Shown in pieces: positions 4,134 to 22,901 of a stretch of DNA of 28,245 bases (within the stretch, counting starts at the first letter, position 1; the number at the start of each line of letters is the position of its first letter). The notes below the pieces were generated by a model, which worked only from the letters and a program-made list of their open reading frames with translations, did not search any database and was not told the DNA's origin. The DNA is taken from UHGV virus genome UHGV-0133447. One strand, written 5' to 3'. This DNA is from a virus. The translations under genes were made by a program, and so were the position numbers.

Positions 4134-4329
4134 CGCTGGCCCCTTTCGTGGCTTCTGCTTTACGTTCTGCCGCGGCGACGCTGGCGGCCGCCTTCTCTTC
4201 GGTGCGCTGCCGGCTGGCTTTCGCTTCTGCTTTACTGGTGCCTCGCGCATGGCCAATGCCGAACGCGCCAGCAATAGCGCCCAGAATGACAACCACCAGC
4301 CCCGCGATAGCTTCTATTCCCATGATCAT
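4048..4329 (-). CDS. putative inner-membrane spanin (Rz-like)
   Basis: 93 aa with N-terminal transmembrane segment (IAGLVVVILGAIAGAFGI) then a charged Ala/Glu/Lys-rich helical region. Start overlaps the endolysin stop (ATGA). The following lipoprotein ORF overlaps its 3' end. Confidence 0.45.
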   Translation of the reverse strand: MIMGIEAIAGLVVVILGAIAGAFGIGHARGTSKAEAKASRQRTEEKAAASVAAAERKAEATKGASDVEESVKRMGDDDVDRELREKFTRPGGG

Positions 4330-4955
4330 CCCACCAGTACCGATTTTGCTTTCAGGAATCGGGCGCGTCGGTCATCAATGCCGTTCTGCCCGCCGTTGAT
4401 AATCTGGGTCACGCGCACTAAATCTCCGTGGTATTTCAAACATCCGTTTGAGGTGTAAAACCAGGCTGCGCTGCGGGCCGCATTAATATATTTCTCCAAC
4501 AACTCAGGGTTGCTGACTAAATCCAGTTTCAGTGCATTACCGCACTTCATATAATTTTCGAGGAAGGTGATCCCGATAATTCCACGCCCGCGGTATTTCC
4601 AGCCATCGCCCGCAGCCTTATTGCCAAAACGATTGTTGTAGACGAGATTAGCGATCGCTCGTTGACGTTCGATCGGTAAAACCTTTTCGTAAGTTTTACG
4701 CCCCAGGGTGTTCGCCTGGTCCTGCGTGATGCGCTTTGCCTTCACAAAACCAGCCAGGCCGGCAACGCTATAGTTAAAACTTTCGACCATCTGGGTAAAT
4801 GACGTGCTTTCGTGTCCACACTGCGCTATGAACATCGCCTGATCGAGTGGAGCTGTAATGCCGAATTCTTTCATCGCAGCATCAATATGCGGAAACCAGC
4901 GCGCAGCTAACCCGGCGCTGATACCAGCCGCCCTTTGAAATTGTGATTGGTTCAT
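4326..4955 (-). CDS. endolysin, glycoside hydrolase family 19 (chitinase-like lysozyme)
   Basis: 209 aa with FIAQCGHESTSF-type motif and overall GH19 endolysin pattern (memory). Flanked by holin-like and spanin-like genes. Confidence 0.85.
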   Translation of the reverse strand: MNQSQFQRAAGISAGLAARWFPHIDAAMKEFGITAPLDQAMFIAQCGHESTSFTQMVESFNYSVAGLAGFVKAKRITQDQANTLGRKTYEKVLPIERQRAIANLVYNNRFGNKAAGDGWKYRGRGIIGITFLENYMKCGNALKLDLVSNPELLEKYINAARSAAWFYTSNGCLKYHGDLVRVTQIINGGQNGIDDRRARFLKAKSVLVG

Positions 4956-5233
4956 CAGTGCCTCAGTGCATCAACCAGTCGCGCCACATTCCCCCTGAAC
5001 CAGAGAACCGCGCCGCAGATAAGAATGTTAGCCAGCACCACCAGCCAGTGGGATGACTCGTACAGGCCAAACAGGAAACGGAAAGGGATGCTGGCATAAA
5101 CCAGCACCATGAGATAAGCCAGAACGGATATGCCCGGACGGTGTCTCGCACTACCTCGTTGGTAGAACATCAATGCCAGCACAATGACGGCGCAAATGAC
5201 TGCATTGGCCAGCGCTGAAGGATCATTTACCAC
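4955..5233 (-). CDS. holin-like small membrane protein
   Basis: 92 aa with three predicted hydrophobic segments and a basic C-terminus. Immediately upstream of the endolysin with a 1-nt start/stop overlap. Confidence 0.55.
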   Translation of the reverse strand: MVNDPSALANAVICAVIVLALMFYQRGSARHRPGISVLAYLMVLVYASIPFRFLFGLYESSHWLVVLANILICGAVLWFRGNVARLVDALRH

Positions 5234-5612
5234 TTGAACCTCCTCCCCGGAACCGGGTCAGCATATTGAACAAGCTATTTAGATCCTGGCTGTTGAGAAA
5301 CGTCAGAACTTTGATGATAAGCGCTGATATTAATACGGCTCCCAACGCATCAAGCGGACGGTCGCTGTAGCCAGTCCAGCTTGAAAGCTTGGAACCCACC
5401 AGACCGGCGCCCAGAACACCAACAATGAATGACGTCATAAAGTATGCCACCAGCTTACCGCGCGATATGTTAGCTGCCGTGGCCACGTAAAAAACCGCCC
5501 CGGCGAACGCACCAAATACCACGCCGTAATCTATTCCGGTAGCCAGACCGAACATGCTAGCCCCCATCAGGCCGCCGGCCGCAACTGAAGTACCAGAGAC
5601 AGGATCGGACAT
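5223..5612 (-). CDS. holin-like membrane protein (possible holin/antiholin partner)
   Basis: 129 aa, Gly/Ala-rich hydrophobic segments, GAGGGGG RBS. First gene of the lysis cassette. Confidence 0.55.
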   Translation of the reverse strand: MSDPVSGTSVAAGGLMGASMFGLATGIDYGVVFGAFAGAVFYVATAANISRGKLVAYFMTSFIVGVLGAGLVGSKLSSWTGYSDRPLDALGAVLISALIIKVLTFLNSQDLNSLFNMLTRFRGGGSSGK

Positions 5613-6493: not shown

Positions 6494-6496
6494 GGC

Positions 6497-6522
6497 CAAA
6501 GAAAAAGCCCACCGAAGTGGGC
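6497..6522 (-). terminator. intrinsic terminator (minus strand) with UUCG-type tetraloop
   Basis: Minus-strand reading ggcccac-ttcg-gtgggc followed by TTTTCTTTGG. Lies downstream of the TerB-like gene. Confidence 0.5.
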
Positions 6523-6896
6523 CTTACAGCTATCATCATTTTTTATTAGGTGTGGTGCCGGGTGCCTCCCGGTAAGTCGCCGCCAGTCCACAGACGACTC
6601 GCAATGCGCAAAAAAACATATCAGACTGGCAATGCCCCTCCGCATAGGGGGATTCACCACACGGATAATTTAGGATGTAGTCATAGGCGGCGTCAATAAC
6701 TGACACTCTGTCAAAGGCATCATTACGATGCCTTTTGCACAGTGCTAATCACTGGATCTAATAAGGGGCCAGAGCAAAGCGATTACCCCGGCTACCAGCA
6801 CGCCATCAGCCAGGATTGACATCATTTTGCTGGTGAAGTCGATAGCAACCACCAGAAACAAAAGCACCCCGGCTGCGGCCCAGCGAAGTTTACCGA

Positions 6897-7322
6897 TCAC
6901 AGGTACTGGTCCAGAGGAAGTTGCAGAGCCTGGGCAATTTTCTTCAGCTGTTTCTCTTCTTCTTCCCCGATGCCGTCGTTATCAGCTACATCAAGACACA
7001 GGCAAAGAACATCGACAGCGTCATCCGTCCCGGCAACGTCAGCCAGTTCGCGCAACGCCTGAGCGTTGGCTGAACGTGGTGATGCTTCATAGCGAGCGCG
7101 AATATTCGAACTCATCTGGGCAATTTCACCAGCAAATGGCGCGAATGCCGGGAGGGCCGAAATAGTCTTCTCCAGCACTGCAATCTCTTTTGCATCGCAG
7201 GTACCATCGGCGTATGCAATCGAGTACGCTCCCCAGACCGTGGCTTCTACGGCATCGCGGTTTTCCATTTTTTTTACTTCAACAACGGCTTTACGGGCTT
7301 TCTTTTTAAAAATACCGAACAT
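6897..7322 (-). CDS. TerB-like domain protein (tellurite-resistance TerB fold), moron candidate
   Basis: Using the ATG for MFGIFKKK...: two acidic motifs (AYADGTCDAKEIAVLEK and VADNDGIGEEEEKQLKKIAQAL) matching the TerB pattern from memory. The track ORF extends to 7403 with an alternative upstream start. Confidence 0.5.
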   Translation of the reverse strand: MFGIFKKKARKAVVEVKKMENRDAVEATVWGAYSIAYADGTCDAKEIAVLEKTISALPAFAPFAGEIAQMSSNIRARYEASPRSANAQALRELADVAGTDDAVDVLCLCLDVADNDGIGEEEEKQLKKIAQALQLPLDQYL

Positions 7323-7341
7323 AATTACGTCTCTCTTTAGT

Positions 7342-7404
7342 GGTGAGCCAACGCTCAGGGATGGTAACCACAAGGCGACGTAATACCGTCCCTCTTGGCT
7401 CACC
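7342..7404 (-). promoter_or_regulatory. long composite hairpin in the leader of the TerB-like gene
   Basis: Outer 10-bp stem ggtgagccaa (7342-7351) / ttggctcacc (7395-7404). Inner 8-bp stem agggatgg (7357-7364) / ccgtccct (7386-7393) with one wobble. Sits between the HNH-AP2 stop and the TerB-like start. Confidence 0.35.
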
Positions 7405-7453: not shown

Positions 7454-7954
7454 TTAAATAGATGAAAAATCACCATGGTACTGCCTGGAAGCAGCTACAT
7501 ACGCCCTGTGCGCTTCTTCTTTAGTGTGGAAGCGACCAAGTCGAATTTTTTTCTTTGCAATACTTATTTGCGCAATCCATTTTTTTCTATTGCGGGGGGA
7601 ATCGTTGAAATAGACCCCTTTAAGTCCAGCTGCGTTATTGCTGTGTATCCGTCGATTGCGAGTGTTCTGGTTTTGTGTGCAGAGCCTGAGATTTGTAATA
7701 CGGTTATTCAACTTGTCGCCATCAATATGATCAACAACAAGGGTTGACGGAATTTCACCGTATTTCAAGACCCAAATTATTCGGTGCACACGTATATTCT
7801 TTCCATTGAAGAATACCCTTAAATACCCAGTATCAGTCTTGACGCCAAGAGTGTCGCCAGGACTTTTACTCCCAAAAGGTGACTTGCAATAAAGGATGCC
7901 CGTAGTTTCATCGTATGAAAAAAAGTTCCTAACCGTTTCAAGAGATAGATTCAT
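7454..7954 (-). CDS. HNH homing-type endonuclease with C-terminal AP2-like DNA-binding domain
   Basis: 166 aa. HNH core VVDHIDGDKLNNRITNLRLCTQNQN. C-terminal GVYF...KKWIAQISIAKKKIRLGRFHTKEEAHRAYVAASRQYHGDF resembles AP2 domains (memory). AGGAG RBS. Gene is visibly AT-richer than its flanks. Confidence 0.8.
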   Translation of the reverse strand: MNLSLETVRNFFSYDETTGILYCKSPFGSKSPGDTLGVKTDTGYLRVFFNGKNIRVHRIIWVLKYGEIPSTLVVDHIDGDKLNNRITNLRLCTQNQNTRNRRIHSNNAAGLKGVYFNDSPRNRKKWIAQISIAKKKIRLGRFHTKEEAHRAYVAASRQYHGDFSSI

Positions 7955-8008: not shown

Positions 8009-8033
8009 CGAAAAAGGCCCGCGAATGCGAGCC
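8009..8033 (-). terminator. intrinsic terminator-like hairpin (minus strand) upstream of the HNH-AP2 gene
   Basis: Minus-strand reading ggctcgc-attc-gcgggcc (7-bp stem, one G-U pair) followed by TTTTTCG. Confidence 0.45.
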
Positions 8034-8246
8034 TGATGGATCCGCTTACTGATACGGAGCGACCAACCTAAGTTGTCGCAGATTCAAATTGTGGCCCTGC
8101 CTTTAAGTCACTTTGCGCGCAGCTGGGACATGTAGTTTTCGCATCGTGATCGGGATTCGCTTCAGACGCTGGCCCCGCAGCCATTTAAGTGCCGGTTACG
8201 TTTATCCGGCGGCTTTCGCCCGGTTAAGCCCTAAGGTAAGGGATTT

Positions 8247-8393
8247 GGTTGTGACACCAGGCCGTTACGCCTGCTTACTTCCTGCCGCTCTGTTTTGGTA
8301 TTGGCCGCCAGTAACTGCGACTCAGCCGATTTACAGGTCTTTGCGTCGGCCGGCGCTGCAGCCCACTTGAGCACATCACAACGGAAAGAGCGC
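8247..8393 (-). ncRNA. candidate structured tRNA-like element, copy A (degenerate)
   Basis: Minus-strand leader gcgctctttccgttgtgat resembles the leaders at 21901 and 22159. gttgtga can pair with tcacaac about 130 nt downstream to close the element. Contains gcgccggccgacg internal motif. Region 8036-8505 has no credible ORF. Confidence 0.3.
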
Positions 8394-8505
8394 TTAGTGC
8401 ATTTAAGCCAAACCCCATGTAGGAAGCACTCTTACCTGTTGTGCGCTCCGTTTCGTGGAGCAGACGCCGCCGGAATCGCACCGGCAGAATCATCACATTG
8501 GTATA

Positions 8506-8581
8506 TGGTGCTGGTTGACGGAATCGAACCGCCGACATCCTGCTTACAAGGCAGGCGCTCTACCAGCTGAGCTAAACCAGC
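8506..8581 (-). tRNA. tRNA-Thr (anticodon UGU), phage-encoded
   Basis: Minus-strand 76-nt cloverleaf GCTGGTT-TA-GCTC-AGCTGGTA-GAGC-G-CCTGC-CTTGTAA-GCAGG-ATGTC-GGCGG-TTCGATT-CCGTC-AACCAGC-A-CCA. Acceptor 7 bp, D-loop GG, anticodon loop with U33 and A37, canonical T-loop, encoded CCA. Confidence 0.8.
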
Positions 8582-9621
8582 AAATTACGCATTTCACTGA
8601 CCGTCTGTTCAAATCTCTCGGTTTCCAGTTCGACACCTAGTCCCCTTCGCCCGAGAAGAGCAGCCTGCTTGAGCGTTGAGCCTGATCCAAAAAAGAAATC
8701 AGCTACAACATCACCCGGGCGGCTACTCGCTGTGATTATCTGCTCCAGCATATCCGCAGGCTTTTCACATGGGTGTTTACCTGGATAAAACTGAACAGGC
8801 TTATGAGTCCAGACGTCGGTATATGGCACCGTGACCGATACGCTGAATGGTCGCCGTAAACGGTAATATTCCTGCTGGAGTTCAGAATATTTTCGGCTTA
8901 ACGATTGCCAGGTGCCGACAAGCTGGTGGTGAGGTTTTCCCAGTTCGTTGCGTGAGTGCTTATCCATGGCGATTGTTTGAAACAAAGCCTGCAACTTTAA
9001 ATAATCGGCTTCGTTCGGTAGCTGCCACTGACTAAGGCCAAACCAGTGGGAAACCATATTTTTCTTACCTGTGGCTTCTGCAATCTGAGCCGACGTCACG
9101 CCAAGAGATTCCCGTGCATCACGGAAGTAAGAAATTAAAGGCGTCATGACGTGTTGCTTTAACTCATTACACTTTGCGGCATATCCATCGTCTTTGGGCC
9201 TGTATGGCCCCTGATAATGGTCGGCAAAAATGATACGCTCAGTGGCCGGGAAATAAGCGCGTAAGCTCTCCTTATTGCAGCCGTTCCATCGCCCTGATGG
9301 CTTAGCCCAGATGATATGGTTGAGCAGGTTAAACCGCTCTCTCACCAACAGCTCAATATCCGCTGCCAGGCGGTGCCCACAGAACAGATACATGCTGCCG
9401 GCAGGTTTTAACACTCGCCAGAACTGTGCCAGACAGCTATCCAGCCAACGTAAATAGTCTTCGTCCCCCTTCCATTGGTTATCCCAGCCGTTTGGCTTCA
9501 CCTTAAAATAAGGCGGATCGGTAACAATAAGATCAATGGAGTTATCGGGTAGCGATGGGAGGTATTGCAGGCAATCAGCATTGATTAACTCAATACTGGA
9601 TATTTTTACAGTATTTTTCAT
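8572..9621 (-). CDS. orphan DNA methyltransferase, N6-adenine/N4-cytosine (beta) class
   Basis: 349 aa with TDPPYF catalytic motif near the N-terminus. No adjacent restriction endonuclease. The ORF's last codons overlap the 5' end of the tRNA. Confidence 0.85.
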   Translation of the reverse strand: MKNTVKISSIELINADCLQYLPSLPDNSIDLIVTDPPYFKVKPNGWDNQWKGDEDYLRWLDSCLAQFWRVLKPAGSMYLFCGHRLAADIELLVRERFNLLNHIIWAKPSGRWNGCNKESLRAYFPATERIIFADHYQGPYRPKDDGYAAKCNELKQHVMTPLISYFRDARESLGVTSAQIAEATGKKNMVSHWFGLSQWQLPNEADYLKLQALFQTIAMDKHSRNELGKPHHQLVGTWQSLSRKYSELQQEYYRLRRPFSVSVTVPYTDVWTHKPVQFYPGKHPCEKPADMLEQIITASSRPGDVVADFFFGSGSTLKQAALLGRRGLGVELETERFEQTVSEMRNLLV

Positions 9622-9770: not shown

Positions 9771-9992
9771 TTACTGGAGGCGCTTATAACATCCGAACTG
9801 ATAATCAGATAACCCCGCCATTACCAGCTGCGTAAGTATGAGCTGGCAGCGTTCGCGGCTCAGGTGAGTATTCTGAGCAATCTCCCCAGCCGTAGCCGGT
9901 TTGTCACTTAACTCATCAAAAACAGCCTTGGCTGTTTCCGTCATATCTTGCTGATTTAGCATGTCTTTTATCTCAAATAAGTGGTGTGACAT
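9771..9992 (-). CDS. small winged-helix-like DNA-binding protein (hypothetical; PapI/FaeA-like fold only suspected)
   Basis: 73 aa from the ATG (MSHHLFEIK...); the track's longer ORF starts at a TTG. Segment ATAGEIAQNTHLSRERCQLILTQLVMAGL has an HTH-like pattern. First ORF downstream of the late promoter/terminator. Confidence 0.35.
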   Translation of the reverse strand: MSHHLFEIKDMLNQQDMTETAKAVFDELSDKPATAGEIAQNTHLSRERCQLILTQLVMAGLSDYQFGCYKRLQ

Positions 9993-10063
9993 ACAGATAA
10001 CTCTGGTGACGGTATCCAGCAAGAACTAATTGAAAGAGAAGAAGATTTTATCGATTTTATCCC

Positions 10064-10089
10064 ATAAAAAAACCCGCTCGCTGGCGGGT
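10064..10089 (-). terminator. intrinsic terminator just downstream of the putative late promoter (tR'-like)
   Basis: Minus-strand reading acccgc-cagcga-gcgggt followed by seven T (complement of 10066-10072). Confidence 0.5.
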
Positions 10090-10127
10090 TAATCAACGTT
10101 GAACATACAAAGCCCATCGTTATAAAT

Positions 10128-10156
10128 AAAATTACACAAAAGCGGCAACTTTGCAA
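10128..10156 (-). promoter_or_regulatory. candidate late promoter (PR'-like) immediately downstream of Q
   Basis: Minus-strand TTGCAA (10151-10156), 17-nt spacer, TAATTT (10128-10133). About 40-60 nt upstream of the terminator at 10064-10089, analogous to the lambda PR'-tR' arrangement. Confidence 0.35.
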
Positions 10157-10172: not shown

Positions 10173-11003
10173 TTATGCGATATTTATCAAATCAGGCACC
10201 TTTGTCACACGTTTAAGCTGTGAGTCGGTATAACTCTCTTCCTCAAAGCATCTTGTAACCAGACTTTCATAGAAAGGTTTCCAGCTATATCGCCAGGTAC
10301 GTTCTGGCAGACCAGGCAGCTCAGAGAGCATACCCCTGTATGCATTCGAAGACTTAGGACGACTATAACCGCGGCCTTCACAACGTTTACACACTTTGTA
10401 GACAGGCACTCCCTGCAGCTCTGACTCTTTACGGTCCAGGGTTTTTCCCGTACCGCCACACTGGCATCGCTTGCTGATTTTCCCGGTGCCGCCACATTTG
10501 AAGCAAAGAACATGGTCAACCTCTTCCACCTGACGTTTTACTTCAAAATCCGAAGGTGACTGCCTGAGGTCTTTTGCCCATTGCGGTAATCTCATTGTGT
10601 AGTGGCTTTTTTCCACCATTGAGGTTTTTTTTATGAAGCCTGAACCAGAACACTTCCTGCAATCTACGCTGTCAGCTGCAGACGAGGCATAGTCGTTATA
10701 AGCGAACCGAGCTATTATCAGCATACACAGCGGGAACTTCTTCCCTGCTGCTTTTCTTATCGATCGAGGCGCTTTTGATTTTGCATATTCAGCCAACCAA
10801 CTGACGGATGCCTTTCTGTCGTGTTCGCTGATTCCAGCTTTACCCAAAAACATTGACAGGCCTATTCCTGCCTCTGCCTGTGTCATCCCCAGAGCCGCCA
10901 TTACATCTGTCACAGTAAGTTGCTCGCTGGCGGTTGCAAGACCGCTATCGGAAATATGCATTCCTTTGGGCGCAAAAAATTTGGGAATTGATTCAATATT
11001 CAT
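10173..11003 (-). CDS. late-gene antitermination protein Q-like (Cys-rich, zinc-binding type)
   Basis: Repeated Cys pairs CRKCSGSG / CFKCGGTGK / CQCGGTGK / CKRCEGRG. Position directly upstream of promoter plus terminator and adjacent to DUF968 resembles Qin-type Q (memory). ATG at 11003 has a GGAG RBS; the track's GTG at 11021 is an alternative start. Confidence 0.65.
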   Translation of the reverse strand: MNIESIPKFFAPKGMHISDSGLATASEQLTVTDVMAALGMTQAEAGIGLSMFLGKAGISEHDRKASVSWLAEYAKSKAPRSIRKAAGKKFPLCMLIIARFAYNDYASSAADSVDCRKCSGSGFIKKTSMVEKSHYTMRLPQWAKDLRQSPSDFEVKRQVEEVDHVLCFKCGGTGKISKRCQCGGTGKTLDRKESELQGVPVYKVCKRCEGRGYSRPKSSNAYRGMLSELPGLPERTWRYSWKPFYESLVTRCFEEESYTDSQLKRVTKVPDLINIA

Positions 11004-11021
11004 GCTCAGTACTCCATACAC

Positions 11022-17513: not shown

Positions 17514-17972
17514 TCAATCGGAGCACAAGTCACCTCCGCAGTAATTTCCGGCCAGATAGCATGACCCGGCGGAATCATTCATGTTTCTGGCGTTTCGAAC
17601 AGAAGCATTCTTAAGACGCAGGTATCGCTCTCTTGCTTTAGCCGTACAGTTGCTGTCACAAAGTTGCTGCCATACCGTCGCCGCACGGCGGTAATAGCGT
17701 TTCTCTTCCAGCTTTTTGGCTGTCGCTTCAAGGGCGAGAATCTCCCCCGAAAGCCCACCTGGCAGGTACTCTTCAATATCAATGGATCCCGCTACGAAGT
17801 AGATAAACCCACCAGTAACTTCAACGCTGGCAAGTTCCCCGTCGTAGTAAAGGCGATGAACAGCGCTCTTCACTGTTACCGGTTTGGTTTCAGGAAATGC
17901 CGCAGTGATATCGCGCAGCATTTTGCCTGGATTCTTCTCAATAAATTCAAAGATCGACTTGGCTATGTTCAT
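17514..17972 (-). CDS. hypothetical protein with PerC-like C-terminal motif
   Basis: KRYYRRAATVWQQL resembles the RRAA-x-RW signature of PerC-family activators (memory, uncertain). Start overlaps the replication-protein stop (ATGA). Confidence 0.4.
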   Translation of the reverse strand: MNIAKSIFEFIEKNPGKMLRDITAAFPETKPVTVKSAVHRLYYDGELASVEVTGGFIYFVAGSIDIEEYLPGGLSGEILALEATAKKLEEKRYYRRAATVWQQLCDSNCTAKARERYLRLKNASVRNARNMNDSAGSCYLAGNYCGGDLCSD

Positions 17973-18880
17973 CCCCGGAACCCCCGTGGAATCGTGGTTT
18001 GTACTGGACTAATTGAATTAACATCCCGCGGTCTGGTTTTGTCCCACGACTCCCTTGGCGGGCGGCCTTTAGCATCCCAGCGGATGGCGCTTTGCAGATA
18101 TCCCTCGAATTTTTTAGGGCCGAAAAGTGTCTCGGGTCGCATGTACTGGTATTGCTCGTCGTTGCCATGCCAGTGCTCATGCTTGACGTCGATTACCAGA
18201 TTCAAGTCGCTAACGGTATGACCTTCGCGGAGGCGGGCGCGAATGTTCTCCAGTGAGGTCTTAGATTTCTGGTAACGGGAACCGCTGACCAGATTCAGGT
18301 GTGCCAGAACTTCGATCGCGTTATCGGTAATAACAACTTCAGGATCCGGCTTATCGTCGGGTTCCGCAGGAGCCCGACAAGAAGGTTTTTTAGATGACGG
18401 ATCTAATGACGGATCTAATGACGGATCGCCTTCAACCATTGAGGGGTCCTCCCGCAATATTTGAGGGGGTACAGACCCATTATTTGAGGCATCAGAATTT
18501 GACCCCTCAAATTTTGAACCCTCAAATTCTGAGGCATCAAATTTTGATTGTTCACGTGGCGTTGCGTAGAAGATTTTTGCTTCAGCTGCTGCACGTTCAA
18601 GCATGTCCACATTGAGTTTATAAACGTTCGAATTATTCTTTCCACCCACGCGCCGTTCCTGCTTCTTCAGCCAGCCTTTAGCCTGAAGCTTTTTGATAGC
18701 GCTGCGGACAGTATTCTCGCTCTTGGCGCCGATCTGTCGCTGAATAGTGGTTACCGCTGGCCATGACACACCTTCGTCATTACTGAAATCTGCCAGGCGA
18801 GCCATGACCGCTATTTCTGAGATTATCAGCCCTTTGAAAGCGCATGCTTCCCATACGAGGCCGTGTAATTTACTGCTCAT
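17969..18880 (-). CDS. replication initiator / replisome organiser (lambda O-like) containing the origin iterons
   Basis: N-terminal winged-HTH-like domain, low-complexity linker (DPSLDPSLDPS), conserved-looking C-terminal domain. The linker-coding DNA carries tandem and inverted short repeats. GAGGG RBS. Confidence 0.65.
   Translation of the reverse strand: MSSKLHGLVWEACAFKGLIISEIAVMARLADFSNDEGVSWPAVTTIQRQIGAKSENTVRSAIKKLQAKGWLKKQERRVGGKNNSNVYKLNVDMLERAAAEAKIFYATPREQSKFDASEFEGSKFEGSNSDASNNGSVPPQILREDPSMVEGDPSLDPSLDPSSKKPSCRAPAEPDDKPDPEVVITDNAIEVLAHLNLVSGSRYQKSKTSLENIRARLREGHTVSDLNLVIDVKHEHWHGNDEQYQYMRPETLFGPKKFEGYLQSAIRWDAKGRPPRESWDKTRPRDVNSISPVQTTIPRGFRG
18393..18540. repeat. iteron cluster (candidate origin of replication) inside the replication gene
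   Basis: Tandem 12-mers atgacggatcta (18393-18430, about 2.5 copies). Multiple ATTTGAGGG-type repeats in both orientations, e.g. tttgaggggg 18460-18469, ccctcaaatt 18503-18512 and 18519-18528, tgaggcatca twice. Confidence 0.5.
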
Positions 18881-20105: not shown

Positions 20106-20780
20106 ATGAAAACAATCCAGGAAATCAGGCGGTTAAACGCCAGAAAATTGCGTGATGGTGTTGGCGGTAATATTTACTTCGCCAATATGATTGATCGCGA
20201 GCCTACTCAAACCAGCCGGTTCATGGGAGATGGCGCCACTAAAAACATCGGCGATGCAATGGCAAGGCACATTGAAAAGTGTTTTGACTTACCTACTGGG
20301 TGGTTAGATCAGGAACATCAAACCACTAATGTTGCTAAAACGCCCGATGTCTCTGATACAAATAGAAATATCACCATGGTTCCGGTTATATCCTGGGTAC
20401 AAGCAGGAGCATGGACCGAAGTTGGCTATGCTGAGGTTGATTTGAATAGCACTGAAAACTATCCATGCCCTGTGCCTTGTGGGCCGATGACTTATATTCT
20501 TCGTGTTATTGGCGACTCAATGATCGACGAATATAGGCCCGGTGATATGATTTTTGTTGATCCCGAAGTTCCAGCAGTGCATGGAGATGATGTGATCGCC
20601 TTAATGCACGCTTCTGGTGAGACTACATTTAAACGGTTGATTGAAGATGCAGGACAACGCTATCTAAAAGCACTTAACTCAAATTGGCCAGAACCTTACA
20701 TCAAAATCAATGGTAATTGCTCTATCATTGGCACCGTAATTTTTTCCGGTAAACCAAGACGATACCGAACGAAAACATAA
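20106..20780 (+). CDS. cI: CI-like phage repressor (HTH plus S24 LexA-type peptidase domain)
   Basis: 224 aa. C-terminal VIGDSMIDEYRPGDMIFVD...FKRL carries the Ser/Lys S24 signature. N-terminal HTH region. Divergent from cro. Confidence 0.9.
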   Translation: MKTIQEIRRLNARKLRDGVGGNIYFANMIDREPTQTSRFMGDGATKNIGDAMARHIEKCFDLPTGWLDQEHQTTNVAKTPDVSDTNRNITMVPVISWVQAGAWTEVGYAEVDLNSTENYPCPVPCGPMTYILRVIGDSMIDEYRPGDMIFVDPEVPAVHGDDVIALMHASGETTFKRLIEDAGQRYLKALNSNWPEPYIKINGNCSIIGTVIFSGKPRRYRTKT

Positions 20781-20819: not shown

Positions 20820-20848
20820 TTGACAATGTACCTCAACGGTACATAATG
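20820..20848 (+). promoter_or_regulatory. strong sigma70-like promoter with embedded operator (PL analogue driving the early-left operon)
   Basis: TTGACA (20820-20825), 16/17-nt spacer, CATAAT/ATAATG (20842-20848). The spacer contains gtacctcaacggtac, the same GTACC-N5-GGTAC operator type as in the cI/cro region. Confidence 0.55.
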
Positions 20849-20953
20849 TACCTAAAAGAAACAGCGAACAGGCAGGACGCCCACGAAGTAGCCGCCCGGG
20901 GCATATGAAGTCCGGGATGATTCGCTGACAGATAAACCAAATAGGAACAGATC

Positions 20954-21187: not shown

Positions 21188-21900
21188 TTACCACAGGTGT
21201 CTTCGGGAGGGGTTGCGGAGCTGGATTGACCACCAGCAACAGAAACTCACCCGACATACAGCAGCCGTTTAGCCCACGGCGTCGGGGGTCCAGTAGACCT
21301 GGATTAATACTGTAGGGGTTGTGCCGGTTGGTCGCCGGCGCCCCGCCCGAAGATTCCTGATCGAACATGGCGAAAGCCGACAGCGTTGAAGGCGATTTTC
21401 TCGGTTTGCGCGCTAAACAATAGCGGGGGTGAAATCGGGGCGGAGAAGCAGAATCCGCGATGTCGGGACTTGATACTTCCGGCCAGACCAACAAGCCGAA
21501 TGATCGCGTAACGGTCCTTTGCATCTGCCCCGGCGAGGTGGCGCCGCCGGACCGGGGCAGATGAATCGTACACAACATGAAAGCGCATTCCATCTTCATC
21601 CGTCGTGGGGACTGGTTTGTAACTGAAGGAGTGCGCTTCCAGTTGTGAACGGCAATATTCACGACCGTTGTATGGCACATGCAGCGTTAGCAGCCCGGAT
21701 GGTTCCCTTGAAGTTCCATGCGCTATCCGGACAACTGGAATGTGCAAGCCAAGTGTTTCAGGCACGACGTGCGCCCCACCAGCGCGGCGAAAAGGTGTGA
21801 CCCCCGGGAAGAGTCCGGGACACAACAGGAAAGAGTACTGAAGATGCCAGGAAACGCCCTACCGCCAGGCAGATAGACGGGTTATCCCGCAAGGGGTGGC

Positions 21901-22043
21901 GGCAGTGCTCTTACCGTTGTGGTGTAGCTCAAATGGATAGAGCGCCCCTTATGTGGGGAGTTGAGCACTAACCAATGTTCGCAACACAGGTTATCTCATG
22001 CGGCCGGCCGGACGTTATGCGGGTTCAAATCCCGTCACCACAG
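21901..22043 (+). ncRNA. candidate tRNA-like structured element, copy B1
   Basis: Leader ggcagtgctcttaccgttgtggt. TGTGGTG (21918-21924) pairs with CACCACA (22036-22042). D-arm-like GCTC-AAATGGATA-GAGC. T-arm-like GCGGG-TTCAAAT-CCCGT (22019-22035). About 60 extra nt between the anticodon-like region and the T-arm. No encoded CCA. Confidence 0.3.
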
Positions 22044-22080
22044 CGCACAACGATGAGGGCATTGACGAGCAAGGCACAGA

Positions 22081-22099
22081 GTCTGGTTCGATTCCAGAC
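22081..22099 (+). other. tRNA T-arm-like hairpin (loop TTCGATT)
   Basis: gtctgg-ttcgatt-ccagac, a 6-bp stem with a loop identical to the tRNA-Thr T-loop at 8506-8581. Confidence 0.4.
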
Positions 22100-22138
22100 G
22101 CCAGGATAGCTCTATATCTGGTGATGGGCAGGGAAAAG

Positions 22139-22155
22139 GTCCGTTCGATTCGGAC
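22139..22155 (+). other. tRNA T-arm-like hairpin (loop TTCGATT)
   Basis: gtccg-ttcgatt-cggac, a 5-bp stem with the same loop sequence. Confidence 0.4.
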
Positions 22156-22158
22156 ACC

Positions 22159-22290
22159 GGCAGTGCTCTCTTCGTTGTGGTAATTGCGGCTATGCGCACG
22201 TGACGAGCCAACCCGTTCATGGAATGCGTTTCCGGGCAGTGTACGTCGCCGGTTATGGCTTAACCCGGCAGGTGGAGGCACCACCGCCAC
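22159..22290 (+). ncRNA. candidate structured element, copy B2
   Basis: Leader ggcagtgctctcttcgttgtggt matches the 21901 leader at 20 of 23 positions. gttgtgg (22173-22179) can pair with ccacaac (22284-22290). Internal cgtcgccgg motif. Confidence 0.25.
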
Positions 22291-22529
22291 AACCTAGTTA
22301 ACTGTGCTGTGTGTAGTCTTGGCGGTTATCCAGTTTTCCACTATCCAAAGGAGGAAGAGGATAACGTTCTGATGGATAACCGCCCTTTTTACACAATACA
22401 AAAGAGCATCACCGGGCGACGGGCTCATTACCCAATCCACCCGGGCGGCGTCCTAACCGCAGGTGCTCTTCTGTGTTGTGTACGGAGAAATTCCCGGCGG
22501 TGGCAGCCGCCTTTCGAGAGGGTAAAACC

Positions 22530-22901
22530 ATGAGTAATGATCGCATGACAGTAGTGCCCGATTTCCTGGGTGAACTGGACGCCGGCGTATTCATGAACAA
22601 GATTGCGGCGGCTCTTAATACCACCGCGCTCGGCGTTCTGAACAACGGCAACAAAGGCAAGGTTGTCCTCACCTTTGATTTTGAGCGTATGGGCAACTCT
22701 GTTGAAGAGAAGCGCGTCAAGATTAAGCACAAGCTGAACTACAGCACCCCAACTCCCCGCGGCAAAGCGTCGGAGGAGGACACCACCGAAACACCAATGT
22801 GGGTTAACAAAGGTGGCAAGCTCACAATCCTGCAGGAGGATCAGGGGCAACTCTTCGGTATCACCGGCGCGGTGGACGGAAAGCTTAAAGCGGCTCAGTG
22901 A
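22530..22901 (+). CDS. conserved phage early-region protein (possibly YfdP-like)
   Basis: 123 aa from ATG 22530 (GAGAGGG upstream); the track ORF starts earlier at 22473. Precedes the DUF2303-like and HD-domain genes, as in the CPS-53 yfdPQR block (memory, uncertain). Confidence 0.5.
   Translation: MSNDRMTVVPDFLGELDAGVFMNKIAAALNTTALGVLNNGNKGKVVLTFDFERMGNSVEEKRVKIKHKLNYSTPTPRGKASEEDTTETPMWVNKGGKLTILQEDQGQLFGITGAVDGKLKAAQ

Follow-up and report, generated by a model that had tools for sequence, protein, structure and literature searches.

Background

Phage T4 has stable non-tRNA RNAs, 'species 1 and 2', inside its tRNA cluster, and in 3'ETS-leuZ the 3' external transcribed spacer of a tRNA serves as an sRNA sponge. 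RNAs of the lambda 6S/StxS type start at the late promoter by Q, end at the first terminator and range from tens to ~200 nt. Among phage-encoded sRNAs, PasD1 and PasD2 of EPEC accumulate in an Hfq-dependent manner (PMC8550237); the PasD sRNAs are abundant and their presence has been confirmed by Northern blot (PMC8550237; bioRxiv 10.64898/2026.05.13.724894). AgvB and AsxR are primary transcripts of 51-60 nt, and the CACAAC(A) motif in AgvB, which as CACAACA is single-stranded (PMC4104026), mimics GcvB targets (Tree et al. 2014, PMC4104026). The sRNA genes at the PR' moron site are convergent, as stated for EcOnc02 (= AsxR) and EcOnc27 (PMC4104026).

Phage genomes are usually annotated one gene at a time, and blank stretches in them are left unannotated or given doubtful small ORFs. 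We report that one such blank, situated in the 28,245-nt virus genome UHGV-0133447 (the whole analysed stretch, referred to as the window), contains three RNA motifs that are clearly under selection for structure. Judged from sequence comparisons, and with a probability that we set at roughly 0.5, this spacer would make up, apart from the tRNA, a small RNA island that a lambdoid prophage of the Klebsiella type carries in its late operon, and the RNAs of the spacer would be excised and act in trans.

Organization and coding potential of the spacer

The spacer comprises 470 bp without a credible ORF and is part of a minus-strand island with the order tRNA-Thr, two small hairpins (A1a and A1b), A2, B, C1, C2 and an intrinsic terminator (Table 1). 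The earlier note had named the tRNA-Thr and the terminator as its borders, and both were confirmed using ARAGORN, Rfam and a terminator scan. The tRNA-Thr overlaps the last codons of a DNA methylase gene (8572-9621; Pfam N6_N4_Mtase), and the terminator is 95-100% identical across three loci (L001, L002 and L010). The description of the spacer as GC-rich holds only weakly (0.545 vs 0.51 for the window, corresponding to the 81st percentile of 470-nt windows). The minus-strand spacer RNA folded better than shuffled sequences (z = -2.7), and the corresponding value for the plus strand was -1.0.

Table 1. Positions of features in and around the RNA island of the window
Feature	Position	Strand	Basis	Remark
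Q gene	10173-11021		Pfam Antiterm, 3.5e-45	pR'/tR' just downstream
Candidate pR' (TTGCAA-17-TAATTT) and first terminator tR'	10064-10153	-	pR' by eye; terminator scan	
tRNA-Thr, anticodon UGU	8506-8581	-	ARAGORN; Rfam tRNA, 74.1 bits	First member of the RNA island
A1a, T-arm-like hairpin GCCGG-UGCGAUU-CCGGC	8469-8485	-	Sequence	Kept in L002 and L277
A1b, hairpin GCUCC-ACGAAAC-GGAGC	8445-8462	-	Sequence	Precedes A2 in several phages
A2, ~68-nt hairpin RNA	8377-8443	-	48 distinct variants aligned	
B, 135-nt multi-helix RNA	8248-8382	-	35 distinct sequences	Closing helix GUUGUGAY/RUCACAAC
C1, CACAAC followed by hairpins CCCU-UACCUU-AGGG and GCCGG-AUAAACGUAA-CCGGC	8189-8253	-	Alignments	
C2, 148-nt structured trailer	8041-8188	-	57 IMG/VR loci	
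Intrinsic terminator	8009-8034	-	AGGCTCGC-ATTC-GCGGGCCT, stem 8034-8015, then T-run	Closes the island
STnc100 (RF02076)	6494-6691		Rfam match	1.3 kb downstream, same late leader
Early-left leader, ~1.35 kb, non-coding	21190-22530	+		Site of the remaining 'repeated element' copies

That the spacer is free of credible ORFs, as had been claimed before, agrees with our data. Mechanically called ORFs are 38-91 aa long, some of them overlap the tRNA, and the longest stop-free stretch (90 aa) is at chance level (shuffle mean 91). It is highly improbable that one of these ORFs is translated, e.g. an Arg-rich or Plp-like frame antisense to the tRNA, in spite of a 46-aa hypothetical protein annotated over B in ST147-VIM1phi7.2, 'plp' annotated over A2 in P1-family records and peptide-like conservation in two frames in three phages. 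Specifically, Pfam and PHROG searches of the spacer gave zero matches, and homologues of B are separated by 1-nt indels that shift every frame, such that the 'conserved' peptide moves from one frame to another. Moreover, translating each of the 35 B variants from its own end leaves no frame open in all of them, the phiNP frame carries a stop, and the substitutions are compensatory in helices rather than synonymous.

BLAST searches identified the spacer as a mosaic, its individual pieces having matches in unrelated phages. Positions 8254-8576 are missing from Kp4866-6, which over 8253-8000 is 99.6% identical. The piece 8472-8428 is common to P1, Enterobacter phage CobraSix, Cronobacter phage ES2 and Klebsiella phage 6 LV-2017, and a 40-nt piece of C1 is common to Sasha-like and Magnus-like phages. 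Stx-phage tRNA arrays, suggested by the earlier note for comparison, are not the closest relatives; the modules are shared with lambdoid prophages of Klebsiella, Escherichia and Citrobacter, P1/P7 and Felix O1-like phages. The window joins units that elsewhere are found alone, such as C2 after tRNA-Thr, A2 after Q, and B after Q. Only five matches were detected in a scan of genome contigs since this collection has one genome per species, and a search of the accessible literature with sequence strings of the modules returned no matching paper.

A2, B and C2 are separate conserved structured units

A2, B and C2 are separate conserved structured units, each having its own closing helix, a near-fixed length and compensatory changes. 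They recur in other phages in varied combinations and always on the transcribed strand. Because exact conserved cores served as seeds for the alignments, the conservation of these cores is partly built in, and since the sequences are related several of the compensatory changes may trace to few events. No Rfam 15 match was found in 8036-8505 (E up to 10), and copies of A2, B and C2 from other loci (L296, L042, L004, L168, L137 and L010) gave none at gathering score.

Every A2 variant folds into one long hairpin with a three-way tip, where two small hairpins have anticodon-loop-like shapes. The long closing helix covaries (at least nine different sequences), the apical invariant sequence is ~30 nt, and the tip, ..CCyuaAUGGGGyUUGGCUUAAAUGCA.., is the same in all members of a collection that was seeded on the tip core. 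In divergent members CACAAC/GUUGUG is wholly replaced with the pairing retained, and the UGCUCUU segment is base-paired and covaries, e.g. to UGCGCUUC and UACCCUUU.

A2 is present after Q/tR', in P1/P7-like tRNA loci, in Felix O1-type tRNA arrays and in the P1 ban operon, and A1b also lies upstream of it in four other loci (L002, L255, L277 and L330). The order in P1/P7-like phages is tRNA-Asn, tRNA-Thr, A2, with a gap of 4 nt to tRNA-Thr (ARAGORN ends), and in Felix O1-like phages tRNA-Ile, A2, tRNA-Arg, where the next tRNA starts 1-3 nt on depending on which tool defines the tRNA end. In the window A2 starts 62 nt after tRNA-Thr. Among 87 distinct A2 contexts, all 14 tRNAs within 200 nt are on the same strand as A2, and 72 contexts have no tRNA within this distance, i.e. 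the link to tRNA genes is partial. A2 is the only module that we found embedded in a co-oriented tRNA array, as expected for a stable RNA of a tRNA cluster.

The B alignment was derived from 61 IMG/VR loci (35 distinct sequences), which differ in length by 1-nt indels. The predicted architecture includes four internal helices, one long-range helix and a tentative pseudoknot, and the invariant single-stranded stretch corresponds to GCCAAUACCAAAACAGAGCGGC. In total 96.9% of the cells are paired (20-46% in slid controls), ten pairs are changed on both sides, and the observed covariation score was reached by none of 500 shuffles. Helix 1, CACAAC with GUUGUG, is 99% paired, and the pseudoknot pair 48-106 is CG in 22, UA in 12 and UG in one of the sequences. 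The invariant G-U pairs at 10-24 and 32-59 make sense only as minus-strand RNA. A mutual-information scan for extra tertiary pairs was confounded by two main clades. The B covariance model gave 153.9 bits on the window copy, which is the single real copy in the window. B occurs in two contexts: either it follows an S24 repressor gene and precedes sb37/DUF2303 (early-left leader), or it follows Q and precedes the holin gene (late leader); it is always co-oriented with transcription and rarely has a tRNA as neighbour. In the window A2 and B have GUUGUG in common, and hence both closing helices cannot form together.

In most relatives (30 of 43 distinct contexts, same strand) C2 begins right behind the CCA end of tRNA-Thr, and in the window 317 nt of other modules are positioned between the two. 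All 14 distinct long forms are exactly 148 nt, and compensatory changes were detected for five of the 30 predicted pairs. Of the three modules, only C2 has a U-tailed terminator right behind it; A2 and B lack one. For C1 (..GCCGCCGGAUAAACG..) we considered a CRISPR-repeat mimic, and rejected it as the likeness to type I-E repeats is too weak.

The module boundaries fall on shared hexamers, an HNH_3+AP2 gene (Pfam) adjoins the island and has homologues directly upstream of A2 in nine other loci, and the region is polymorphic for presence/absence relative to Kp4866-6. These features would be consistent with selection at the DNA level, with CACAAC and GCTCTTxCCGTTGTG acting as recombination linkers, or with the invariant cores being targets of the neighbouring HNH homing endonuclease, and with the folds as incidental. 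However, divergent A2 members swap CACAAC/GUUGUG entirely while the pairing stays, the G-U pairs, invariant or variable, and the strict co-orientation point to RNA, and linkers leave the internal compensating helices unexplained, all of which makes this alternative quite improbable. Judged by sequence alone, an integron attC-like reading of the CACAAC...GTTGTG palindromes was also rejected; they do not follow the core-site consensus, and the loops rather than the ends are conserved.

Late-operon setting and the early-left leader

The candidate pR' next to Q was read by eye (a consensus promoter scan missed it), and the transcript that includes the island presumably starts there. From the pR' region to the spacer the distance is ~1.6 kb, across two ORFs and a second terminator-like site, and no promoter-like site was detected by scanning inside the spacer on either strand.

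The spacer had also been said to contain copy A of a repeated element. This element is real, although short (15-16 nt): GCTCTTTCCGTTGTG recurs three more times, at 21633-22179(+) (four matches vs 0.83 expected), GCACAACAGGTAAGAG has a second copy at 21820(+), and no spacer repeat of ≥25 nt was found elsewhere in the window. In the early-left leader, where these copies are located, the units are closed by CACAAC...GCUCUUxCCGUUGUG, the same helix motif as in the spacer.

The positions of A2 and B bear on the possibility that the modules are cis-acting leader elements working only on the transcript that carries them, be it by rendering RNA polymerase resistant to terminators or Rho (in the style of put or nut/boxA), as RNase cleavage sites, or by protecting tRNA and mRNA from exonucleases. 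Both modules are promoter-proximal in two regulated operons, the early-left (after the repressor) and the late (after Q), and often start within the U-tract of the first terminator or immediately behind it. Moreover, the early-left leader of the window, 1.35 kb of untranslated RNA, would otherwise invite Rho, and the conserved 3' motif UGCUCUUU resembles the boxA core. However, the UGCUCUU segment is paired and covaries, which boxA would not tolerate, and as the segment covaries as a helix we rejected boxA/nut, i.e. UGCUCUUU plus hairpin, as the primary reading. In addition, virulent Felix O1-like phages carry A2 within tRNA arrays and P1 carries it in the ban operon, settings in which a leader role is unexpected. 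An invariant apical sequence of ~30 nt is not needed for a barrier or a cleavage site, and the late operon is already served by Q. On balance we consider a cis role possible but rather unlikely.

Traces of tRNA in the spacer

The earlier note proposed, as the first of two options, that the spacer is a degenerate tRNA array, and listed a T-arm-like hairpin, GCCGG-TGCGATT-CCGGC. The hairpin itself was recovered (8485-8469 on the minus strand; A1a) and its core is identical to the T-arm of tRNA-Thr at 12 of 13 bases, a match reached by 12 of 2000 shuffles of the 61-nt segment and by 22 of 500 shuffles of the whole spacer. A1a is probably a relic of a tRNA T-arm. The 3' end of C1 (8200-8189) resembles the 3' end of tRNA-Thr; this likeness is weak and not significant alone (reached by 660 of 2000 shuffles), and only the alignment of relatives, where the two line up, backs it. 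The early-left leader, which can be viewed as a sister array, has at 21918-22043 a tRNA-like element that carries a 68-nt insertion (Rfam tRNA, 40 bits) and to which the B covariance model aligns weakly (12.5 bits, E about 0.08, not significant).

These traces would fit remains of former tRNA genes with no present function, but within the spacer they are small, i.e. the T-arm-like hairpin and the weak 3'-end likeness only. The Rfam tRNA model has no match in 8036-8505 at E up to 10 (its sole match is 8509-8581), and ARAGORN, both with default and relaxed settings (-ps, -ps80), reports only tRNA-Thr plus one overlapping artefact; calls made using -ps70 with introns are implausible. As a description of the present state, a degenerate array is thus unsupported. 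A2, B and C2 retain folds that are not cloverleaves, with fixed lengths, and the maintenance of such folds by compensation across many phages indicates purifying selection and not decay. Decay of an array therefore seems improbable and, as far as the alignments tell, largely refuted by the covariation.

Proposed expression and function

The earlier note offered, as a second possibility, a processed non-coding RNA cluster within the late transcript. The strand of the late operon and modules with compensatory and G-U pairs are in keeping with a cluster of this kind; the processing itself is inferred. According to our preferred reading, an RNA island whose products act in trans, the island would be transcribed from the promoter next to Q and would consequently be made in quantity only when Q allows read-through of tR' and the next terminator-like site, such that its RNAs would mainly be produced late in lytic growth. 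RNase P, E or III, by which the host processes tRNA and rRNA precursors, may cut the units from the long transcript, as suggested by gaps to tRNAs of 1-4 nt, as in arrays, and by paired 5' and 3' ends. The freed, stable RNAs might then act in trans on a conserved host partner via their invariant unpaired segments, candidates for which are the A2 tip GGCUUAAAUGCA and the B stretch GCCAAUACCAAAACAGAGCGGC. Within the window, no complement of ≥10 nt to the invariant loops was found.

A more far-reaching suggestion, which we put forward as speculative and unlikely in its specifics, is that A2, B and C2 are phage 'accessory RNAs' that travel with tRNA genes across the lambdoid, P1 and Felix O1 families and act in trans on the host tRNA world, e.g. 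by decoying or inhibiting defence nucleases that cleave tRNAs, or enzymes that process or modify them. If so, they would be counter-defence or takeover factors at the RNA level. The motifs span enterobacterial phages of both lifestyles, temperate and virulent (including P1/P7, Felix O1 and clinical Klebsiella/E. coli prophages), and the modules can be tested as candidate phage RNAs of high abundance in lytic growth. Moreover, they give an entry to a long-standing question, the role of the non-tRNA RNAs in phage tRNA clusters, and covariance models built from the present alignments would improve phage annotation.

Comparison with known RNA systems

A2 resembles the T4 species 1 and 2 RNAs in being tRNA-sized, on the same strand as the tRNAs and only a few nt from them (in Felix O1-like, P1/P7-like and other phages). 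It has, however, no sequence relation to these RNAs, and most A2 copies are located away from tRNAs. C2 is in most relatives a trailer reaching from the tRNA 3' end to a terminator and in this respect is similar to 3'ETS-leuZ; it differs in being much longer and highly structured and, in the window, in being set apart from the tRNA by A (A1a to A2), B and C1. A lambda 6S/StxS-type pR'-tR' leader RNA was rejected, since the window has a separate pR'/tR' at 10153-10064 and the spacer lies far beyond it. The same applies to YrlA/bacterial Y RNA: there is no Rfam match, and the TROVE domain is absent in the ten neighbouring proteins scanned.

HK022 put and nut/boxA share with A2 that they are folded RNAs of ~70 nt, co-oriented and just downstream of regulated phage promoters (PMC9378689). 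In contrast to put, which has two hairpins, A2 is one long hairpin and is also found in tRNA arrays; HK022 is absent among the BLAST matches to the spacer.

The spacer occupies the same niche as AgvB and AsxR, the moron site downstream of the Q-dependent PR' (PMC4104026), and CACAAC(A) of AgvB is identical to the boundary motif of the spacer modules. Unlike the single-stranded motif of AgvB, CACAAC in the spacer pairs with GUUGUG, and the modules are co-oriented with the late operon. Given these differences, and that the spacer has neither an internal promoter-like site nor an Rfam match to AgvB or AsxR, we rejected an anti-sRNA of this type. An AgvB-like mimic of GcvB based on CACAAC/GUUGUGAUGU was also set aside, the motif being paired and absent in divergent A2, and is kept as a lead. 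PasA and PasC share the niche (TerB, tRNAs, holin), but none of the Pas probe sequences occurs in the window; that PasA is convergent to its neighbours and PasC is on the minus strand (Table S6 of the Pas paper) also argues against identity with either.

Finally, STnc100/PasD share with the spacer modules that they are non-coding, co-oriented and located in lambdoid prophages between Q and the lysis genes, and in one locus (L168) STnc100 is positioned directly after B. They differ from the spacer, which has no RF02076 match, and the folds of A2, B and C2 are not those of STnc100/PasD. The STnc100 family, with its member in the window, is related to PasD, and since the PasD RNAs accumulate as sRNAs, co-oriented RNAs of the late-leader region can accumulate as sRNAs.

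Results

RNA modules between the tRNA-Thr and the terminator

Comparative analysis shows that the spacer at 8036-8505, between the tRNA-Thr and an intrinsic terminator, is a chain of separately conserved RNA units with predicted folds on the transcribed strand, and that this chain is built from cassettes found singly elsewhere. The tRNA, the terminator and the hairpin GCCGG-TGCGATT-CCGGC lie where an earlier note had placed them (ARAGORN, Rfam and the sequence itself), and its view of the spacer as ORF-free is borne out: mechanical ORFs within it are 38-91 aa, the longest stop-free stretch is 90 aa vs a mean of 91 in shuffled sequences, and the ORFs gave zero matches in Pfam and PHROGs. The spacer had also been called GC-rich; its GC content is higher than that of the window (0.545 vs 0.51), though only at the 81st percentile. 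The suggested degenerate tRNA array is not supported: tRNA-Thr(UGU) is the sole tRNA called by ARAGORN in the window and no tRNA or pseudo-tRNA was predicted in the spacer by ARAGORN, even with relaxed settings, or by Rfam at E up to 10. Other Rfam families had no match in the spacer.

Features of the late operon and the early-left leader
Feature	Position	Strand	Basis or remark
Q antiterminator	10173-11021	-	Pfam
Candidate late promoter TTGCAA-17-TAATTT and strong terminator AACCCGCCAGCGAGCGGGTTTTTTT	10064-10153	-	Directly after Q; promoter by eye; terminator 10090-10064
Small winged-helix protein	9771-10022	-	Pfam
N6/N4 DNA methylase	8572-9621	-	Pfam
tRNA-Thr(UGU)	8506-8581	-	ARAGORN; Rfam tRNA model, 74 bits
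Hairpin GCCGG-TGCGATT-CCGGC	8485-8469	-	
Terminator-like hairpin AGGCTCGC-ATTC-GCGGGCCT then TTTTT	8034-8009	-	
HNH_3+AP2 endonuclease	7454-7954	-	Pfam
TerB-like protein	6897-7403	-	Pfam
STnc100 (RF02076)	6494-6691	-	Rfam, 100.7 bits; between TerB-like and holin genes, further down the late leader
Holin	5223-5612	-	Pfam
GH19 endolysin	4326-4955	-	Pfam
Early-left leader	21190-22530	+	~1.35 kb without credible gene
tRNA-like element between leader units	21918-22043	+	Rfam tRNA, 40 bits, above gathering score; not called by ARAGORN

BLAST searches of phage records and E. coli genomes gave no match to the spacer as a whole; short pieces match unrelated phages, and the phage matches cover Klebsiella, Escherichia, Salmonella, Shigella, Citrobacter, Enterobacter and Cronobacter. 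Positions 8583-8374 are common to the window and phage 5 LV-2017, and 8394-8242 to the window, Citrobacter phiNP and Klebsiella ST147-VIM1phi7.2, while 8197-8041 is present in an E. coli prophage (L010) and 8185-8137 in phage KpF5, each directly 3' of its own tRNA-Thr. The breakpoints in these shared pieces delimit modules A1, A2, B, C1 and C2. Klebsiella phage Kp4866-6 is 99.6% identical across 8253-8000 and lacks 8254-8576, a presence/absence polymorphism of the cassette block. In this near-identical prophage (L001 3290-3320) the tRNA-Thr, A and B are missing and the junction retains only GCTGG|AGCACC, which looks like both ends of an internally deleted tRNA-Thr.

Module A2

For A2 (8377-8443), two scans seeded with its tip sequence gave at least 48 distinct members. 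The tip (..CCyuaAUGGGGyUUGGCUUAAAUGCA..) is identical among all members listed, but the seeded core is fixed by construction and the flanks are the only independent evidence. The closing helix of ~17-20 bp occurs in at least nine sequence versions, all paired, e.g. CACAAC.GGUAAGAGCAUUC/GAGUGCUCUUaUCGUUGUG, CACAU.GAUAACCCCAC/GUGGGGUUAUC.AUGUG, CAACAUU.UAAAGGGUA/UACCCUUUA.AAUGUU and CACAACGAUA.UGGCGUC/GGCGUCA.UAUCGUUGUG. Because MAFFT misaligns divergent members, the RNAalifold pair table was left out of the evidence.

The settings of A2 differ. In P22-like and lambdoid E. coli prophages it lies just behind a terminator, ~280 nt downstream of Q, and in P1/P7-like phages 4 nt 3' of tRNA-Thr (ARAGORN ends). 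It also occurs behind a small hairpin, GCUCC-ACGAAAC-GGAGC, as in the window, and Felix O1-like phages have it within their large tRNA arrays, with the next tRNA 1-3 nt downstream (tool-dependent tRNA end). Among the matches listed, a tRNA lies ≤200 nt from A2 in only 15 of 87 distinct contexts, always on the same strand. In public records A2 is unannotated or lies beneath an opposite-strand 'plp' CDS (P1-family phages). In P1-family records (e.g. FO818745.1 76580-76650; NC_005856.1, plp at 69472-69849) this 'putative lipoprotein Plp' CDS, on the strand opposite the tRNAs, covers both the A2 motif and the 3' end of tRNA-Thr in part, and may, judging from the sequence, be a mis-annotation. Likewise, the hairpin is unannotated within the arrays of Felix O1-like virulent phages (L296 3645-3718(-); NC_005282.1 25864-25948, Felix O1).

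Module B

An exact 21-nt core identified 61 IMG/VR loci carrying 35 distinct sequences of module B (8248-8382), 133-141 nt long. In the hand-drawn structure GUUGUGAY/RUCACAAC forms the closing helix, alongside four local helices and a single long-range one. Across the 35 sequences 96.9% of cells are paired and both sides have changed in 10 pairs (101 cells), the sequences being related so that independent compensatory events are fewer than cell counts imply. The covariation score was reached by 0 of 500 shuffles, and with slid partners just 20-46% of cells are paired. Compensatory changes include GUAC/GUAC to GCUC/GAGC to GUUC/GAAC, GGUCGA/UCGACU to GGCCGA/UCGGCU, GCCGCAG..CUGgCGGC to GCAACAG..CUGgUUGC and GUUGUGAC/GUCACAAC to UUUGUGAC/GUCACAAA. 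The structure also accommodates a pseudoknot of four pairs (46-49 with 105-108), in which 48-106 is CG in 22 sequences, UA in 12 and UG in one, a covariation that may trace to a single evolutionary event. Read from the opposite strand, the G-U pairs 10-24 and 32-59, both invariant, would become A-C mismatches, so B is predicted to fold as the transcript strand; 1-nt indels among the variants displace all reading frames.

The covariance model of this alignment finds exactly one B copy in the window (153.9 bits; E-values of custom models are rough). B always points the same way as its neighbours and recurs in two positions. In the early-left leader it follows an S24-type repressor gene, with sb37/DUF2303 genes ~300 nt further downstream; in the late leader it lies between Q (upstream) and the holin gene (downstream), and in five of these late-leader loci it starts inside the U-tract of a terminator. 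Such module positions in leaders would suit the main rival explanation, in which the modules would work solely in cis (antitermination, anti-Rho action, processing or stability). Against it stand the boxA-like segment, which covaries, and the presence of A2 within tRNA arrays as well. The B core is present in Klebsiella, Superficieibacter, Buttiauxella and Phytobacter genomes and in one cyanobacterial MAG contig; the latter (JANNDV010000120.1, L343, Acaryochloridaceae), an exact match to the 21-nt core, probably comes from an enterobacterial phage by mis-binning or contamination.

Modules C1 and C2

Together C1 and C2 cover 8041-8253. A 22-nt core detected 57 loci with C2, which starts directly at the tRNA-Thr CCA end in 30 of 43 distinct contexts; in the window and in Kp4866-6-type prophages, C1 stands where the tRNA would be. 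The C1 3' end (CCGGAUAAACGUAACCGGCAC) was aligned opposite the tRNA-Thr 3' end, a likeness not significant by itself. In all 14 distinct sequences of its long form, C2 measures 148 nt without indels, and for these RNAalifold predicts 30 pairs, five with compensatory change, e.g. GCGACAAC..GUUgGUCGC to GCGACAGC..GCUgGUCGC and GAGCAAAC..GUUgAGCUC, and UCCG..CGGA to CCCG..CGGG. Seeding by exact cores means that core invariance in these alignments is in part built in.

Shared cassettes in the early-left leader

The repeated element of the earlier note survives as a boundary motif: the A2-type CACAAC-aGG-uAAGAGCA ... UGCUCUU-uCC-GUUGUG recurs at 21571-22480(+), while no long copy of the spacer was found elsewhere in the window. 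This leader reads as a chain of CACAAC...GUUGUG-closed units whose interiors all differ; upstream of it lie a terminator, an operator-flanked promoter (about 20820-20850) and the S24 repressor gene (20106-20780). One interior contains a pair of T-loop-like hairpins near 22094-22157 (GUCUGG-UUCGAUU-CCAGAC and GUCCG-UUCGAUU-CGGAC); a DicF-like match at 22308-22385 is weak (16.5 bits). The tRNA-like element has an acceptor stem (UGUGGUG/CACCACA), a D-arm and a T-arm, and its 4-bp anticodon-like hairpin is followed by a 68-nt insertion. Leaders in phiNP and ST147-VIM1phi7.2 have the same build and their helix covaries, e.g. GAAGCGCA/UGCGCUUC. Boundary-helix units in both regions suggest that the late spacer and the early-left leader draw on one RNA-cassette pool.

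Elsewhere in the window, four tandem 15-bp repeats (TTTGAGGCATCAGAA / TTTGACCCCTCAAAT ...) at 18483-18557, which also make up an inverted repeat, lie inside the ORF at 17969-18880(-) and look like replication-origin iterons.

Late-operon setting

All genes surrounding the spacer are on the minus strand. By its sequence, the promoter-like site and terminator behind Q correspond to the usual pR'-tR' pair, and the leader RNA made from them would be short (~55 nt), like 6S/StxS. The scan found no minus-strand promoter-like site between this region and the tRNA-Thr, from which we infer that the Q-dependent late transcript carries both tRNA and spacer. STnc100 also directly follows module B in locus L168 (7707-7896), and in L010 it is found downstream of tRNA-Thr and C2.

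The HNH_3+AP2 gene lies just past the terminator of the island, and homologues are directly upstream of A2 in nine other loci (e.g. L334, L340), suggesting that it is a free-standing homing endonuclease common around such RNA islands.

Discussion

We propose that Q permits read-through such that the spacer would be transcribed along with the tRNA-Thr, and that nucleases maturing tRNA precursors would release the units, as the tRNA-like spacing, paired ends and fixed lengths suggest. Through their invariant unpaired segments the units might then act on a conserved host partner. Within the window, no target of the invariant loops was found. Indirect support comes from STnc100, a neighbouring co-oriented RNA in the same leaders grouped with PasD: it was linked to the Hfq-bound PasD sRNAs of EPEC in a 2026 preprint (bioRxiv 10.64898/2026.05.13.724894), and PasD sRNAs accumulate and bind Hfq (PMC8550237; bioRxiv 10.64898/2026.05.13.724894).

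Identity with Pas, AgvB or AsxR was ruled out (Rfam, Pas probe comparison). The three motifs matched no family in Rfam 15, and their sequence strings had no match in the searchable literature. The site downstream of PR' is already known to hold prophage sRNA genes (PMC4104026), and loci of this type, carrying ncRNAs and tRNAs either in the Q-to-lysis moron region or within phage tRNA clusters, are likewise known; as judged from these searches, what is new is the three motifs themselves.
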